NCBI RefSeq assembly: GCF_988243305.1
Contig: NZ_OZ547136.1
Strand: one strand, 5' to 3'
Length of the DNA stretch: 64,000 nt
Positions 17,772 to 26,612 of the stretch are shown one piece after another (within the stretch, counting starts at the first letter, position 1; each line of letters opens with the position of its first letter). The notes under the pieces are model-generated. The model saw only the letters and a program-made list of their open reading frames with translations, was not told where the DNA came from and did no database searches. The translations under genes and the position numbers were made by a program.

Positions 17772-18474
17772 AAAAATGTTCCCGTTCAGGCCATGAGCAC
17801 AGCATTTTCGTACTGCATACAAATACCGACAATACCGTTTCAGTGGCAGTTAGATAATGTAACCTTCTTTCTGTTGTGATCGGTATTCTACTCATGAAAT
17901 AAAATATTAAAAGAACTATTTATATTTTTGAAAGAGATGTATCCTTCATTATTAATACATGATAGTGAAATCAATTTTGGTATTTATAGACTTGGTGAAT
18001 ATAATTTTACGGCCAATAAAGTGCAATAACACATTGATTTATATGTGTTTATTAAATTGATTAATAAGTTTTGTGTATGGTTTTATAAATTAGTTAATTG
18101 CTAGCAATACATCATAAGAAATTCCTTTAAGGAATATCTTAATTGCGTGCAGGAACGATGGTGAAGTAAGTGTTGTAATAATTTATTTTTGACGAAACTG
18201 TAGGTTTTTATGGGGATAAGGATACGTTATGGATAATTCTACTGTTGATGTTGATATATTTTTAGCTTATGTGACCGTGTTCTGAAATTGACTAAAAATA
18301 TATTTAAACACCATAAAAGAGTTTTTCGGTAGGTGCTAATTACGTGTGCCTGTAACTCGAATAAAGAAAAGGGTGTGGTTCCTGATGTGAGCCGCATCAC
18401 ACTCTAACCTGTCGGGGATTAACGACGGGTTGTTCGTAAAAACAGCAGTTGATAATTTCACAAGGAGTTCACAA
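17772..18474. promoter_or_regulatory. AT-rich divergent control region between tssB (minus) and hcp (plus)
   Basis: About 700 bp of non-coding, strongly AT-rich DNA between divergent operon starts; contains two short perfect or near-perfect palindromes at 18097-18108 and 18121-18135. Confidence 0.5.
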
Positions 18475-18993
18475 ATGCCAACCCCATGTTACATTTCTAT
18501 TACGGGCCAGACCCAGGGGAACATCACTGCCGGTGCTTTCACCGCGGATTCTGTCGGCAATATCTACGTGCAGGGGCACGAAGATGAAATGCTGGTGCAG
18601 GAGTTTTTGCACAACGTTACTGTTCCAACCGATCCGCAGTCTGGCCAGCCTTCCGGCCAGCGCGCGCACAAACCGTTCATTTTCACCGTGGCGCTGAACA
18701 AAGCCGTTCCGCTGCTGTACAACGCGCTGGCCTCCGGTGAAATGCTGCCGAAAGTGGAGCTGCACTGGTGGCGTACTTCAGTTGAAGGCAAGCAGGAGCA
18801 CTACTTCACCACACGTCTTACTGACGCGACGATTGTGGACATGAACCTGCACATGCCGCACTGCCAGGACCCTGCACAGCGTGAGTTTACGCAATTGCTC
18901 GCAGTATCACTGGCATACCGTAAGGTTGAGTGGGAGCACATCAAATCCGGTACTTCTGGTGCCGATGACTGGCGTGCACCGCTGGAAGCATAA
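18475..18993 (+). CDS. hcp: T6SS inner tube protein Hcp (TssD)
   Basis: ATG at 18475 (MPTPCYISITGQTQGNITAGAF...) preceded by AAGGAG 7 nt upstream; 172 aa; ORF track start 18430 is an upstream TTG. Confidence 0.9.
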   Translation: MPTPCYISITGQTQGNITAGAFTADSVGNIYVQGHEDEMLVQEFLHNVTVPTDPQSGQPSGQRAHKPFIFTVALNKAVPLLYNALASGEMLPKVELHWWRTSVEGKQEHYFTTRLTDATIVDMNLHMPHCQDPAQREFTQLLAVSLAYRKVEWEHIKSGTSGADDWRAPLEA

Positions 18994-19004
18994 ATCTGAG
19001 TCAA

Positions 19005-19038
19005 CAACATCCTGCCTTCGTGCAGGATGTTGTTTTTG
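19005..19038 (+). terminator. Rho-independent terminator/attenuator between hcp and vgrG
   Basis: 11-bp perfect stem (CAACATCCTGC / GCAGGATGTTG) with a 6-nt loop, followed by TTTTT, 12 nt after the hcp stop. Confidence 0.6.
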
Positions 19039-19213
19039 TACGTGTAAAAAATGAGTGTCAGTAAGGAGTTACGCTTTCATGAGGGAGATGGCGGATGCCG
19101 GAAACCCGGGCGGTAGCGTACCTGAAAATGTAAAGATGAGTGTAACGCTGCACTGGCACCCTTTGCTGCATGGTGAGAATCATTTGGTCCGTGAATAAAT
19201 CAGGGGGGTCATT

Positions 19214-21196
19214 ATGTCCTTAAAAGGTCTGCGCTTTACGCTGGAGGTTGACGGCCAGGAGCCGGACACCTTTGCAGTGGTGAATTTCAGGTTAATCCAG
19301 AACCAGTCATATCCGTTTGTGATGAGTGTGGATGTTGCCAGCGACTCTTTTATGCAGACGGCGGAGATGCTGCTGGAGAAGAAGGCGACACTGACCATCT
19401 GGCAGGGCGCAGTGGCGCAGCGTTATGTCACCGGCGTGGTGGCGGGTTTTGGCATGCAGGAGAATAACGGCTGGCAGATGCGTTATCACCTGCGTATTGA
19501 GCCGCCGTTATGGCGGTGCGGGCTGCGGCAGAACTTCCGTATCTTCCAGCAGCAGGATATCCGGACGATATCGGCCACGTTACTGAACGAGAACGGCGTC
19601 ACGGAGTGGACGCCGCTGTTTTATGAGGACCATCCGGCGCGGGAGTTCTGTGTCCAGTACGGGGAGTCGGACCTGGCGTTTCTGTCCCGGCTGTGGGCGG
19701 AGGAGGGAATTTTCTTCTTTGAGCGGTTTGCGGCGGACAGTCCGGAGCAGAAGCTGACGCTGTGCGACGATGTGGCGGGGCTGTCACAGGCGGGAGAGCT
19801 TCCGTTTAACCCGGACACATCGACAGGAGCGGAGACGGAGTGTGTCAGTATGTTCCGTTATGAGGCGCATGTCCGCCCGTCGTCGGTGCAGAGCCAGGAT
19901 TACACGTTTAAGGTGCCGGACTGGCCGGGGATGTATGAGCAGCAGGGTGAGAACCTGAACGGACAGCTGGCGCAGTATGAGATATTTGATTATCCGGGAA
20001 GGTTCAAGGACGAGCAGCACGGCAAGGATTTCACGCTGTACCAGATGGGCAGCCTGCGCAGTGATGCGGAAAAGGCCACAGGGCAGAGTAATTCACCGAA
20101 GCTGTGGCCGGGAACGCAGTTTACGCTGACGGGGCATCCGCAGAAGATGCTGAACCGTGAATGGCAGGTGGTACAGAGCATACTGTCAGGAAGCCAGCCG
20201 CAGGCGCTGCACGGCAGCCAGGGGAGAGGAACCACGCTGGGAAATCAGTTAGAGGTGATACCGGCAGACCGGACGTGGCGTCCACGGCTGCAAAGCAAAC
20301 CGAAGGTGGACGGGCCACAGAGCGCCATTGTCACCGGGCCTGCGGGAGAGGAAATCTTCTGCGACGAACATGGCCGGGTACGGGTGAAGTTCCACTGGGA
20401 CCGTTATCACGGGATGACGGAGGCGAGTTCATGCTGGGTGCGGGTATCGCAGGCGTGGGCGGGGCCGGGTTTCGGCAATCTGGCGATACCGCGGGTGGGT
20501 CAGGAGGTGATTGTTGATTTCCTGAACGGCGACCCGGACCAGCCGATAATCATGGGACGGACATACCATGAGGACAACCGTTCGCCGGGGAGTCTGCCGG
20601 GGACGAAGACGCAGATGACGATACGGTCGAAGACCTATAAAGGAAGCGGATTTAACGAACTGCGCTTTGAGGACGCCACAGATAAGGAACAGGTCTATAT
20701 TCACGCGCAGAAGAACATGGATACGGAAGTGCTGAATGACCGGACGACGGACGTGAAGCATGACCACACGGAAACCATTGGTAACGACCAGAAGATAACG
20801 GTGGGGTTGGGCCAGACGGTGAATGTGGGGAGCAAAAAGGAAGGTGGTCATGACCAGAAAGTGACGGTAGCGAACGATCAGCATCTCACGATAAAAAATG
20901 ACCGGCACAAGGTTGTAAATAACAACCAGACAAGCAAGGTGACGGGAACTGATACCGAAGAAGTCGTCAAAAAACAGAGTATTAAAATAGGTGATAATTA
21001 CGAACTGAAAGTTGAGCATGGTACAAAAATCATATCTGGGGACAGTATTGAGCTAATTTGTGGGCAGGGAGAGAGCGGGACTTGTTCCATAAAACTGGAG
21101 AAAACAGGAAAGATAATAATACGGGGGACGGAGTTTCTATTTGAGGCTACCGGTCCTGTAGATATTAAAGGAAAAGATATTCATCTGAACGGATAG
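19214..21196 (+). CDS. vgrG: T6SS spike protein VgrG (TssI), no C-terminal effector extension
   Basis: 660 aa; gp27/gp5-like organisation ending in beta-helix repeats; GGGGGG-type ribosome-binding site upstream. Confidence 0.9.
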   Translation: MSLKGLRFTLEVDGQEPDTFAVVNFRLIQNQSYPFVMSVDVASDSFMQTAEMLLEKKATLTIWQGAVAQRYVTGVVAGFGMQENNGWQMRYHLRIEPPLWRCGLRQNFRIFQQQDIRTISATLLNENGVTEWTPLFYEDHPAREFCVQYGESDLAFLSRLWAEEGIFFFERFAADSPEQKLTLCDDVAGLSQAGELPFNPDTSTGAETECVSMFRYEAHVRPSSVQSQDYTFKVPDWPGMYEQQGENLNGQLAQYEIFDYPGRFKDEQHGKDFTLYQMGSLRSDAEKATGQSNSPKLWPGTQFTLTGHPQKMLNREWQVVQSILSGSQPQALHGSQGRGTTLGNQLEVIPADRTWRPRLQSKPKVDGPQSAIVTGPAGEEIFCDEHGRVRVKFHWDRYHGMTEASSCWVRVSQAWAGPGFGNLAIPRVGQEVIVDFLNGDPDQPIIMGRTYHEDNRSPGSLPGTKTQMTIRSKTYKGSGFNELRFEDATDKEQVYIHAQKNMDTEVLNDRTTDVKHDHTETIGNDQKITVGLGQTVNVGSKKEGGHDQKVTVANDQHLTIKNDRHKVVNNNQTSKVTGTDTEEVVKKQSIKIGDNYELKVEHGTKIISGDSIELICGQGESGTCSIKLEKTGKIIIRGTEFLFEATGPVDIKGKDIHLNG

Positions 21197-21302: not shown

Positions 21303-22349
21303 ATGATAGAAATGAAAAATAACACACCATTTCCTTTGTTGTCATTTGAAAAATATGGTCGTTATGGTCTTTTGTTTGATGTTATTGCTATTAAAATGTC
21401 ATTGCGAATTAAAAATGGATTTTATGCTGATCTTGCTGAGTTTCAAAAAGAATTGTCCATGTCTGATGAATACTATGGGGAGTCTGAAACAAGTAGTCTA
21501 AAATCTGAAACAGACTTAGTTCTTTGTAAAAGAAATACAGATATTCACGTGACAGGTAGTGCTCATGCCCCTCCAGGGGATAAGTCTAAGTGGAAGGCTT
21601 GTGTGAGGGTTAATAGTTTTTCTAAAGAACTGAGTTTATCTGGTGTCCGCTACTTACAATATGAGCGAAATCGTTGGCAGATGAGCTTACCAGATAAAAT
21701 TATTAATGTTCCTCTACGCTATGAGCTTGCTTACGGTGGTATTTGGCAACCAGATGGTATGGAGAAATTGGTTTTTTCAGCAAACCCTGTAGGTTGTGGA
21801 TATTATCCTGATATTTCTCAACTTAATACAAGTTGTCAATATAAACTCCCACAAATAACCAGCTCTGCTTTGTCAGAAAACGCTACCATTTTTAATGGGG
21901 AATCTGACTTTTTTCAAGGTGTTGGCCCTGTATCTCGATGGTGGAAAAGTCGCCTCCAGTATGCAGGAACCTACAATGAAGTATGGCGTGAAAAGCGCTA
22001 TCCCTATTTGCCGGATGATTTTGATGAGCGGTTCTACAATAGTGCTCATCCGGATATGATATACACGGGGTTTCTCTCTGGCGATGAAAACATCTCTCTT
22101 GAAGGTTTTTTTAAATTTGAACAGGTTGTTAAGACAAAATTGCCAGGTATACGACCTGTACTTATATTAAAAACCAAGCATAATACATCACATATGTTCT
22201 TACCTGTTGCGGATACAATGGTTATCGATTTAAGTCGACAGGAAATATACCTTACCTGGAGATTAACAATACCTGATTTTTTTGGAATGAAAGAAGGAGT
22301 GCTGAGTTGTATTATTCCTGAATGTATAGGGAAAAAATATTATGGGTAA
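21303..22349 (+). CDS. T6SS adaptor-like protein (DUF2169-type suspected from context and size)
   Basis: 348-aa AT-rich ORF immediately downstream of vgrG; 8-nt overlap with the following PAAR-like gene; the family call rests on genomic context, not on a motif I can verify. Confidence 0.45.
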   Translation: MIEMKNNTPFPLLSFEKYGRYGLLFDVIAIKMSLRIKNGFYADLAEFQKELSMSDEYYGESETSSLKSETDLVLCKRNTDIHVTGSAHAPPGDKSKWKACVRVNSFSKELSLSGVRYLQYERNRWQMSLPDKIINVPLRYELAYGGIWQPDGMEKLVFSANPVGCGYYPDISQLNTSCQYKLPQITSSALSENATIFNGESDFFQGVGPVSRWWKSRLQYAGTYNEVWREKRYPYLPDDFDERFYNSAHPDMIYTGFLSGDENISLEGFFKFEQVVKTKLPGIRPVLILKTKHNTSHMFLPVADTMVIDLSRQEIYLTWRLTIPDFFGMKEGVLSCIIPECIGKKYYG

Positions 22350-23382
22350 CTATCATATCGGGGATGGTGAATGTAGATTTAGAGTCGTGTGTTCTTCACC
22401 AGATGTATGTGAAGTAGGAGGTTACAAGGTTCCTTTTGACAGTTACCAGACTTTAGATAGTGAAAGACAGTACAGTTCAACGGTATGGGCGCGTGGATGC
22501 AGAGCTTTAAATGTTGGTTCAGTGATTGCTGGAACTCAAAGTAATGCCGGTAAAGGTGTCATATCCGGTACATCTCAAGGAACGGGTGACTGTGTTATTT
22601 TAACGGGAAGTCCGACTGTAACAATAGAAGGGAAACCTGTTGCTTATCATGGTTCAGTTGTTGGGATTAATAACCATAACTGCCTTGGTAAATTGTATAC
22701 CAAAATAAAATCACCAATGATTTCTGTCATTGATAAAACTTTTAGTTATGAAAGGACTGCTGAAGTAATACACGATTTACTGCTTCTGAAGGATCTCCTT
22801 TCTGTTGGGAATATTTTGGGCGGAGATATTTCACCTGAGGTTAAAAATGATTTATTTCAAATAAAAGATCCTGACCAATCATGGGGGGAGTTTTTTTCAA
22901 TAAAGAATATCAGAGAATCTCTCAGGAATGGTATTGAAGGAGATAAATCTCAGATCAGAGAATGGTTTGGAGAGAACACACTTACTCAAATGGGCAATGG
23001 AGCAATCACCACTTTACATGGTGTGGCGGATTTAGCCTTAGTTACATTCGATGCTCTGTTAGATACGGCAACGGCAACGGTTGCTTGCCCGATAGGCGAA
23101 GATGGGTTATGTGAACAGGCAAATATAAATTTAAATGAAAAAGAACAGGCTTTATTTAATATTAGTAATTCATTGATAAATGGGCAAGCATGGGATGCAC
23201 TTAAAAAAATGATAATGGATACAAATAATGGTGATCAGATTGCTCTGGAGCATTTTGCCAGCTTTTTATGGGGCTTTATGATACCCGCAAAAATACCAGA
23301 AGAAAATATCTCTGGGAAAGTATTTGTAGAGCCAGTAGTTTTAGAAGGTGGTGCTGGTGGCAATTGGACAGTATTTGATTAG
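22342..23382 (+). CDS. PAAR-like (DUF4150-type) T6SS spike-tip protein with C-terminal extension
   Basis: N-terminus CRFRVVCSSPDVCEVGGYKVPFDSY...GDCVILTGSPTVTIEGKPVAYHGSVV resembles PAAR-like DUF4150 domains; 346 aa; ends at a TAG that is in frame with the next ORF. Confidence 0.65.
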   Translation: MGNYHIGDGECRFRVVCSSPDVCEVGGYKVPFDSYQTLDSERQYSSTVWARGCRALNVGSVIAGTQSNAGKGVISGTSQGTGDCVILTGSPTVTIEGKPVAYHGSVVGINNHNCLGKLYTKIKSPMISVIDKTFSYERTAEVIHDLLLLKDLLSVGNILGGDISPEVKNDLFQIKDPDQSWGEFFSIKNIRESLRNGIEGDKSQIREWFGENTLTQMGNGAITTLHGVADLALVTFDALLDTATATVACPIGEDGLCEQANINLNEKEQALFNISNSLINGQAWDALKKMIMDTNNGDQIALEHFASFLWGFMIPAKIPEENISGKVFVEPVVLEGGAGGNWTVFD

Positions 23383-24303: not shown

Positions 24304-25250
24304 ATGGAACTTAAAAAATTGATGGAACATATTTCTGTTATCCCCGATTACAGGCAAGCCTGGAAAGTGGAACATAAATTGCCAGATATTCTATCTGTTA
24401 ACTATTTGCGCCGTTATTTCTGGTGCATAAGGCTGGGAAGATATAGAGGATTTGGGGAAACACATCTCGATTTTTTGAAGTGATATGGTGATTTTGAAAA
24501 TGGTATTCCTGTTCACGATATCATTGCCAGAGTTGTATCCTGTATCAGTCCTGCAAAATTTTACGAGTGCTTTATTAACTGGATGCGTGACTGTCATTCT
24601 TCAGATGATAAAGACATCATCGCAATTGATGGAAAAACGCTCCGGCACTCTTATGATAAAAGTCGTCAAAAGGGAGCAATTTATGTCATTAAAATCCGTC
24701 TTCATATTGTTTGCATGTCTCTGATGAATTTATTGATTTTACGTTTGAATGGAAAGGGCTGAAGAAATTATGCATGGCAGTCTCATTTCGCTCAATAATA
24801 GCAGAACAAAAGAAAAATCCCGAAATGACGGTCAGATATTATAGCATTTCTGCTGATTTAACCGCAGAGAAGTTCGCCACAGCGAACCGAAATCACTGGC
24901 AAGTGGAGAATAAATTGCACTGGCATCTGGACGTGGTAATGAATAAAGACGACTTCAAAATAAGAAGAGGAAATGCAGCAGAATTATTTTCAGGGATACG
25001 GAAGATCGCTATTAATATTTTAACGAAAGATAAGATAATCAAGGCAGGGGCAAGATGTAAGATGTGAAAAGCAGCTGCGGACAGAGACTACCTCGCGTCA
25101 GTCCTTGCGGGGGCGGGCTTTCGTAATCTTGTTCTGCAAGGGATGATAAAAAGTGCAACTTTATTCCACGCAGCTATTTAGACAGCGTACAGTAAACAAA
25201 CGAAAGTTGTTATTTCAATGGTCAGGGCAAGAGCATGAAGTGTTTACTAC
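24304..25250 (+). mobile_element. Degenerate ISAs1-family (H-repeat) element with disrupted transposase
   Basis: N-terminus [26 protein letters not shown]... and C-terminal fragment ...[27 protein letters not shown]...[17 protein letters not shown]... match the ISAs1/H-repeat transposase from memory; frameshifts and an internal deletion are evident; right boundary approximate. Confidence 0.7.
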
Positions 25251-26377: not shown

Positions 26378-26409
26378 TTAATAACATAATTACTGCAAAT
26401 AATATCGTA

Positions 26410-26612
26410 ATTTTGAAAATGGTAATCCTGTTCACGACACCATAATTAGAGTTATGTCTTGTATCCGTTCAGTATAATTTCACGAATGCTTTATTAACTG
26501 GATGCGAGATTGCCATTCATCAAATGATAAAGACGTCATCGCAATTGATGGAAAAGCGCTTCCACACTCCTATGATAAAAGTGGTCGCAGGAGAGCGGGC
26601 TTTCGTAGTCAT
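26410..26612 (+). mobile_element. Second, shorter ISAs1 (H-repeat) transposase remnant
   Basis: About 180 bp at roughly 85% identity to 24491-24672 (encodes ...FENGNPVHDT...[29 protein letters not shown]...), joined directly to H-repeat 3'-end-like sequence (GGGCTTTCGTA). Confidence 0.6.

Follow-up and report, generated by a model that had tools for sequence, protein, structure and literature searches.

The closest described system is the hcp3-vgrG3 intergenic region of EHEC EDL933, named h3R (Vazquez-Lopez et al., Microbiol Spectr 2026; PMC13141884). It comprises region I, a predicted terminator formed by a 32-base hairpin with 14 base interactions at +8 of the hcp3 3' UTR; region II, a predicted promoter with transcription-factor sites; and region III, the vgrG3 5' UTR. 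In wild-type EHEC, separate hcp3 and vgrG3 amplicons were obtained by RT-PCR and no product spanned the junction, from which the authors concluded that the two genes are separate operons. A Tac/Trc promoter placed upstream of intact h3R yielded no VgrG3. Deletion of region I increased junction RNA and reduced hcp3 mRNA to 6%, the largest effect measured, with Hcp3 protein falling to ~50% (plasmid) or 85% (chromosome), and in a gfp-h3R-mCherry reporter removal of region I, alone or together with II, reduced GFP by half and raised mCherry twofold. Region II represses vgrG in EHEC as well; both regions had to be removed for clear VgrG3 expression. These tests were whole-region deletions, with no point mutations in the stem or U-tract, and the authors did not exclude other causes; promoter activity of h3R was not demonstrated, and the conditions tested shifted the reporter less than twofold (PMC13141884).

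A hairpin downstream of hcp has also been studied in the T6SS4 of Yersinia pseudotuberculosis (PLoS Pathog 2025), where mutation of the hcp4 hairpin lowered the hcp4 transcript only and left the downstream genes unchanged; the authors regard it as a protective 3' loop following endonucleolytic cleavage and not as a terminator (PMC12503267). Differential expression from a hairpin located between a high- and a low-copy gene of one functional unit is exemplified by partial terminators (PMC4824070) and by the intercistronic stem-loop of puf (cited in PMC12503267). The placement of such hairpins relative to translation has been addressed by Li et al., who found that tR2 is almost fully repressed a few bp past a stop codon, with maximal termination attained only at distances above ~27–30 nt; the trailing ribosome blocks folding of the terminator hairpin, and terminators less than ~27 nt from the stop are partly repressed (PMC4824070). 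Each T6SS apparatus contains 3 VgrG versus up to a thousand Hcp, and the spike proteins are among the least abundant components and limit the number of assembled machines (PMC6565705).

The window analyzed here (the whole stretch of DNA under study, 64,000 nt from contig NZ_OZ547136.1 of assembly GCF_988243305.1) is E. coli chromosome containing an ExPEC-type (UTI89-like) T6SS cluster. Positions 18300–19400 match NZ_CP148331 at 100% identity and UTI89 at 97%. In this cluster tssB and the structural genes are oriented leftward, and hcp, vgrG, and then the cargo genes rightward; the features discussed below are listed in Table 1.

Table 1. Features of the hcp-vgrG region and adjacent cargo genes, in coordinates of the window
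Feature	Position	Strand	Basis or remark
hcp, T6SS tube protein, 172 aa	18475-18993	+	ORF list; RefSeq WP_001142963.1 (identical sequence), Hcp family protein
hcp stop codon TAA	18991-18993	+	ORF list
Predicted terminator hairpin, perfect 13-bp stem	19003-19034	+	RNA fold; covariation in 26 loci
Hairpin 5' arm, full 13 nt, AACAACATCCTGC	19003-19015	+	
G-C-closed core, 11 bp	19005-19032	+	5' arm CAACATCCTGC 19005-19015; 3' arm GCAGGATGTTG 19022-19032
Hairpin loop CTTCGT, 6 nt	19016-19021	+	
Hairpin 3' arm, full 13 nt, GCAGGATGTTGTT	19022-19034	+	
U-tract TTTTTGT	19033-19039	+	directly 3' of last G-C pair; first two T can also close the stem
Conserved ~95-nt block	19055-19150	+	nhmmer; matches EHEC h3R region II by position and order
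Small ORF, 39 aa from ATG	19079-19198	+	AAGGAG before start
vgrG ribosome-binding site GGGGGG	19203-19208	+	read from sequence; aligns with CAGGGAGG in relatives
vgrG, 660 aa	19214-21196	+	ORF list; UTI89 and NZ_CP148331 annotation; blastn mapping
DUF2169 cargo gene	21303-22349	+	3' of vgrG; ORF list, UTI89/NZ_CP148331 annotation, blastn mapping
PAAR-like cargo gene	22342-23382	+	after DUF2169; ORF list, UTI89/NZ_CP148331 annotation, blastn mapping

The cargo region differs among close relatives. NZ_CP148331, otherwise 99.9% identical, contains a 5.66-kb island (vgrG C-terminus, DUF4123, two hypothetical genes, and PAAR) that is absent from the window, and the arrangement of UTI89 at this site is that of the window. 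The island junction consists of 1.5 kb of vgrG 5' sequence (window 19212–20719; L001 14913–16420 and 20576–22083), 99.9% and 99.95% identical to the window. Because this junction sequence is common to two vgrG paralogs, it suggests that cargo modules may be gained or lost via vgrG-vgrG recombination. Frameshifted or partial remnants of ISAs1-family transposases (~24305–25068 and ~26404–26598, mapped from the L001 annotation) occur 3' of the cargo genes, directly before yafV and ivy, and mark the island edge. One record among the loci collected for comparison (NZ_CP026085.1, 4.83 Mb), labeled E. coli DH5alpha, encodes a T6SS cluster comprised of tssB, tssC, tssE, tssF, hcp, vgrG, and an Rhs core, with T6SS protein accessions that are those of E. 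coli W. K-12 derivatives are not known to carry this cluster, so the strain label of this record is probably wrong.

The earlier note, made from the sequence of the window, had described a hairpin with an 11-bp GC-containing stem and a T-run 12 nt after the hcp stop, and precisely this structure is present. All 11 pairs of the core are Watson-Crick, six of them G-C, and two outer A-U pairs (19003–19004 with 19033–19034) can lengthen the stem to 13 bp; the distance from the hcp stop to the stem is thus 9–11 nt, 19005 being the 12th base past the stop. The RNA fold has a predicted ΔG of -20.3 kcal/mol (z = -4.47) and was equaled by one of 200 shuffles. The hcp sense RNA accordingly contains the parts of an intrinsic terminator: a stable G-C-containing stem (11–13 bp, where at least ~5 bp is expected) with a 6-nt loop (3–8 nt expected), a U-rich tract following it, and a location past the hcp TAA in the same orientation as hcp (+). 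The structure is equally that of a decay barrier, in which a stable stem-loop closes the 3' end of the mRNA segment that is more abundant. A generic terminator scan made no call at the window hairpin because it extended the stem by the two A-U pairs and counted too few T in the tail (only 4 in 8 bases); with the last G-C pair as starting point the tail has 6 T in 8, and the W/O157 allele was called by the same scan with 14 pairs. An Rfam scan of 17800–19400 at a permissive E-value returned only chance-level matches, of which the best over the hairpin (mir-338 and STnc370) were far below their gathering scores; the conserved block has no Rfam match.

For comparison with h3R we used O157:H7 and W sequences, with EDL933 represented by its published description, which they match in having a hairpin, AACAGCATCCGGCTATCAGGCCGGATGCTGTT, at +8 (PMC13141884). 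Since the W/O157 hairpin aligns with that of the window column for column, differing in only two compensated pairs and the loop, the window hairpin is, by alignment, a diverged allele and the ortholog of EHEC h3R region I. Both are 32 nt long (at +9 in the window and +8 in O157/W) with stem columns 85% identical, and in the window the hairpin is likewise followed by a region II-type block and then by vgrG. The resemblance extends to the surroundings: the hairpin occurs 8–9 nt past the stop of a 94%-identical Hcp, ends in the same T-run (TTTTTGTA), and precedes the same conserved block, with vgrG ~220 nt past the hcp stop, in the same divergent tssB/hcp cluster layout. The alleles differ in that two stem pairs are exchanged from G-C to A-U and the loop is altered, the spacer is only ~76% identical, the block of the window contains an 8-nt insertion, and the cargo is DUF2169 and PAAR-like in the window versus Rhs in W. 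We infer that the window allele behaves like the EHEC allele; however, termination efficiency is not transferable between them because the predicted stem of the window is weaker (-19.7 versus -25.2 kcal/mol for EHEC/W) and A-U rich in its lower half. The hairpin is therefore already known as a kind, its ortholog in E. coli (EHEC) having been described experimentally in 2026 (PMC13141884).

We collected 80 hcp loci, using one genome per species, and the hairpin was alignable in 26 Enterobacteriaceae sequences. In this alignment 94.4% of cells are paired, compared to 34–62% when the partner is slid by 1–3 columns, and eight of the 13 stem pairs have changed on both sides; none of 500 shuffles reached the observed covariation on any of five measures. 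Mean pairwise identity among 22 loci rises from 51% at hcp 4-fold sites and 54% in the hairpin loop to 79% in the stem and 94.5% in the U-tract. The loop thus drifts at the neutral rate, while the stem is maintained by compensatory substitutions. The alignment also contains 29 G.U cells, which are valid only in + strand RNA and would mispair on the other strand, locating the structure in the + strand RNA. The hairpin pattern occurs once in the window, where chance predicts 0 copies. Of 5,426 complete E. coli genomes, 551 carry it, each in exactly one copy and always after hcp. Among the four ExPEC-type alleles aligned (window, UTI89, A32, and Ec-FL1-1X) polymorphism in the hairpin is confined to one loop base, and the one divergent E. 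coli variant, in SCU-124, comes from a record in which both hcp and vgrG are frameshifted.

These data bear directly on whether the element might instead function at the DNA level, as a protein operator or recombination site, or be a REP-like dispersed repeat or a chance inverted repeat without RNA function. Such an origin might be suggested by the hairpin being a perfect inverted repeat, and in the W allele the upper part of the stem (CATCCGGC...GCCGGATG) bears a superficial likeness to REP sequence. However, the half-sites covary rather than stay conserved, with both sides changed in 8 of 13 pairs, the loop is neutral, and in a DNA cruciform or on the other strand the 29 G.U cells would turn into A.C mismatches; a chance repeat is further opposed by the single shuffle in 200 that folds as well. 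A dispersed palindrome of the REP/BIME type was rejected based on the one copy in the window and the one place per genome in the 551 genomes. We regard all of these possibilities as extremely improbable, and the covariation, the selection gradient, the population data, and the generality of the hairpin confirm that it is no chance palindrome.

The most conserved part of the hairpin element is the U-tract. All 26 Enterobacteriaceae family members have at least 5 T among the 8 nt that follow the last G-C pair, and the sequence past the run diverges. The terminator anatomy that had been proposed for the hcp sense strand is upheld by both the compensatory stem changes and the conserved U-tract, the latter being the feature that distinguishes a terminator from a pure decay barrier. 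If the element were only a decay barrier, hcp and vgrG would be co-transcribed without significant termination and the stem-loop would stop 3'-to-5' exonucleases after endonucleolytic cleavage, resulting in segmental mRNA stability, a mechanism suggested for Yersinia hcp4 and for the puf operon. An exonuclease barrier needs no U-tract, let alone one that is 94.5% identical; moreover, loss of region I in EHEC brought more junction transcript and a twofold rise in the downstream reporter, and with the region intact the Tac/Trc promoter failed to drive VgrG3 (PMC13141884). On the other hand, hcp3 mRNA level was the largest EHEC effect, mutation of the Yersinia hairpin reduced the hcp4 transcript alone (PMC12503267), and, as described below, hcp hairpins of other genera mostly lack a U-tract and eight relatives have hcp-vgrG gaps so short that vgrG is probably transcribed through the hairpin. 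Weighing these observations, we consider it improbable that the hairpin is a decay barrier only.

Hairpins directly downstream of hcp are not restricted to the Enterobacteriaceae. In 83 loci from many gammaproteobacterial genera, the best hairpin within ~110 nt of the hcp stop has a median ΔG of -21.8 kcal/mol, versus -12.4 kcal/mol in locus-matched random windows (n = 249; Mann-Whitney p = 2e-26), and restricting the comparison to the 53 loci with a same-strand vgrG downstream gave a similar result. Outside the Enterobacteriaceae these hairpins are not homologous, and only 19% are followed by at least 6 T in 9. Because most of them lack a U-tract, the function common to genera is perhaps stabilization by the stem-loop itself, and the comparison suggests that termination is a property of the enterobacterial family. 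The Yersinia hcp4 hairpin is similar in its stability, in its location directly past hcp, and in favoring the hcp transcript over those of the T6SS genes downstream, but it is not homologous, the next gene there is tssE4 rather than vgrG, and the window family has a conserved U-tract. Likeness to the puf stem-loop and to partial terminators is an analogy of mechanism only, and read-through would be just one candidate source of downstream expression here.

A second spacer architecture occurs in eight relatives (L015, L022, L025, L026, L028, L029, L035, and L036) belonging to Lelliottia, Enterobacter, Rahnella, Citrobacter, and Buttiauxella, in which the hcp-vgrG gap is only 66–81 nt. These gaps contain a hairpin and a ribosome-binding site without the conserved block, and a good U-tract is found in only two of the eight; in Enterobacter asburiae the hairpin is followed by T8 and, 14 nt on, by the ribosome-binding site. 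Since 66–81 nt accommodates little beyond these two elements, vgrG in the short-gap relatives is probably reached by polymerases that have passed the hairpin, barring a promoter inside hcp.

Termination at the hairpin is probably incomplete. The stem is only 9–11 nt past the stop (5–18 nt across the family, median 9), within the range in which ribosomes repress terminators (PMC4824070); the EHEC reporter changed only twofold; and the eight short-gap relatives presumably need transcription through their hairpins. By analogy with the tR2 results, read-through would be coupled to the ribosome. The model of the EHEC authors is instead one of full insulation, in which termination is near complete, a regulated promoter of their own in the 180-nt spacer is the sole source of vgrG and cargo-gene transcripts, and the hairpin separates two regulons and sets no ratio. 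The negative wild-type junction RT-PCR, with separate amplicons positive, accords with this model, as do the promoter and transcription-factor sites that the authors predicted in region II (PMC13141884) and the presence of a strongly conserved block within the spacer. Yet a sigma-70 promoter scan of the spacer found no + strand site at 9 of 12 matches in either the window or the W allele, h3R promoter activity was not demonstrated and the tested conditions gave less than a twofold change in the reporter, and the downstream reporter only doubled without the hairpin region (PMC13141884). The position of the hairpin close behind the stop, where ribosomes suppress termination, and the short-spacer relatives without room for a promoter also argue against it. 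A TGGCAC...TTGC-like string at 19165–19181 was considered as a sigma-54 site and rejected, as by eye its spacing is wrong and it is not conserved. Full insulation thus seems to us possible yet rather doubtful. vgrG mRNA may derive either from read-through or from its own promoter; the EHEC wild type shows no junction transcript and its authors conclude that the operons are separate, so read-through is a candidate source only.

Based on the structure, its conservation, and the EHEC results, we consider it probable that the hairpin and U-tract form an intrinsic (Rho-independent) terminator that also stabilizes the hcp message. Most transcripts from the hcp promoter would end at the hairpin, giving a short monocistronic hcp mRNA whose 3' stem-loop would shield it from 3'-to-5' exonucleases and so provide abundant tube protein, and fewer polymerases would reach vgrG and the cargo genes, the products of which are needed in few copies. 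A ribosome finishing hcp close behind the polymerase would occlude the 5' arm of the hairpin, making termination incomplete, and the output of vgrG would be determined past the hairpin, in the conserved 95-nt block and the vgrG leader. That the element alters hcp and vgrG expression was demonstrated by others, for the EHEC ortholog only. The EHEC effects agree in direction with the earlier proposal of high Hcp output and attenuated vgrG, as region I raises upstream and lowers downstream expression; that proposal omitted stabilization of hcp mRNA, and the read-through it invoked is a candidate source of vgrG mRNA only. The hairpin does not by itself set the stoichiometry, because additional repression of vgrG maps 3' of it, to region II in EHEC and, correspondingly, the conserved block in the window.

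This block, rather than the hairpin, is the most interesting feature nearby. An HMM built from the aligned spacer retrieved 22 distinct loci with nhmmer (E = 8e-21 for the block in the window), in all of which the block sits 62–79 nt past the stop of hcp, in the hcp orientation and as a single copy. Across about ten enterobacterial genera the identity of its core is 87%, compared to 51% at neutral sites and 95% at hcp codon positions 1+2. By position and order, the block would be the counterpart of h3R region II. A candidate fold consists of an outer GTTACG/CGTAAC stem around a GCCGG...CCGGC hairpin and is 92% paired, versus 33–49% in slid registers; two of the pairs are mostly G.U and sequence variation is low, and covariation did not exceed that of shuffles, as the sequence varies too little.

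The block overlaps a small ORF. Similar small ORFs are annotated in some records, such as EDL933_0238 (PMC13141884), and one frame within the block (REMADAGNFGGSVPE) is open in 21 of 21 sequences. A conserved leader peptide was nonetheless rejected as the main reason for the conservation: the start codon is missing in most relatives, length and C-terminus vary, synonymous and non-synonymous counts differ little between frames, with a synonymous excess in none, and 3-nt periodicity is absent. In the window the frame is shifted by the 8-nt insertion and the flanking nucleotides are still conserved. This insertion (AAAATGTA, 19125–19132) is found only in the window, in the other ExPEC-type alleles aligned (UTI89, A32, and Ec-FL1-1X), and in E. 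whittamii. The small ORF is probably no conserved gene, and the block, as judged from its conservation, is a strongly constrained noncoding element.

The vgrG leader itself may contribute to regulation. Many relatives (L002, L008, L009, L011, L013, L016, and L019) contain a short CCUG...CAGG(G)AGG hairpin ~10–30 nt before the vgrG ATG that is able to engage the first half of the vgrG Shine-Dalgarno sequence in base pairs, and at 19166–19209 in the window the G-run of the ribosome-binding site has a predicted pairing partner in a more distant CACCCUUUG segment. Such pairing would fit translational repression of vgrG. A second terminator-like hairpin directly before the vgrG ribosome-binding site was rejected, as region III folds no better than shuffles (z -1.0 to +1.2).

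Taken with the conserved block, the hairpin could be the first part of a composite, as yet unclassified hcp-vgrG leader module in which the block is a new cis-regulatory RNA gating vgrG, a reading that we put forward only tentatively and hold to be on the unlikely side. Within such a module the block may serve, for example, as a platform for an RNA-binding protein or small RNA. If this hypothesis is correct, the block would gate vgrG translation or stability, and hence the number of T6SS assemblies, independently of hcp.

The covariation, selection gradient, U-tract conservation, two spacer architectures, and cross-genus generality reported here are new, and they extend the EHEC study to a design rule for this T6SS family, in which the element has undergone compensatory evolution across the Enterobacteriaceae, the U-tract is under greater constraint than the stem, and unrelated hairpins occupy the same post-hcp position across Gammaproteobacteria. 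Promoter replacement to activate silent T6SS clusters must reckon with both the hairpin and the conserved block. A terminator-stabilizer located between hcp and vgrG would be a simple, DNA-encoded route to the asymmetry between Hcp and VgrG.
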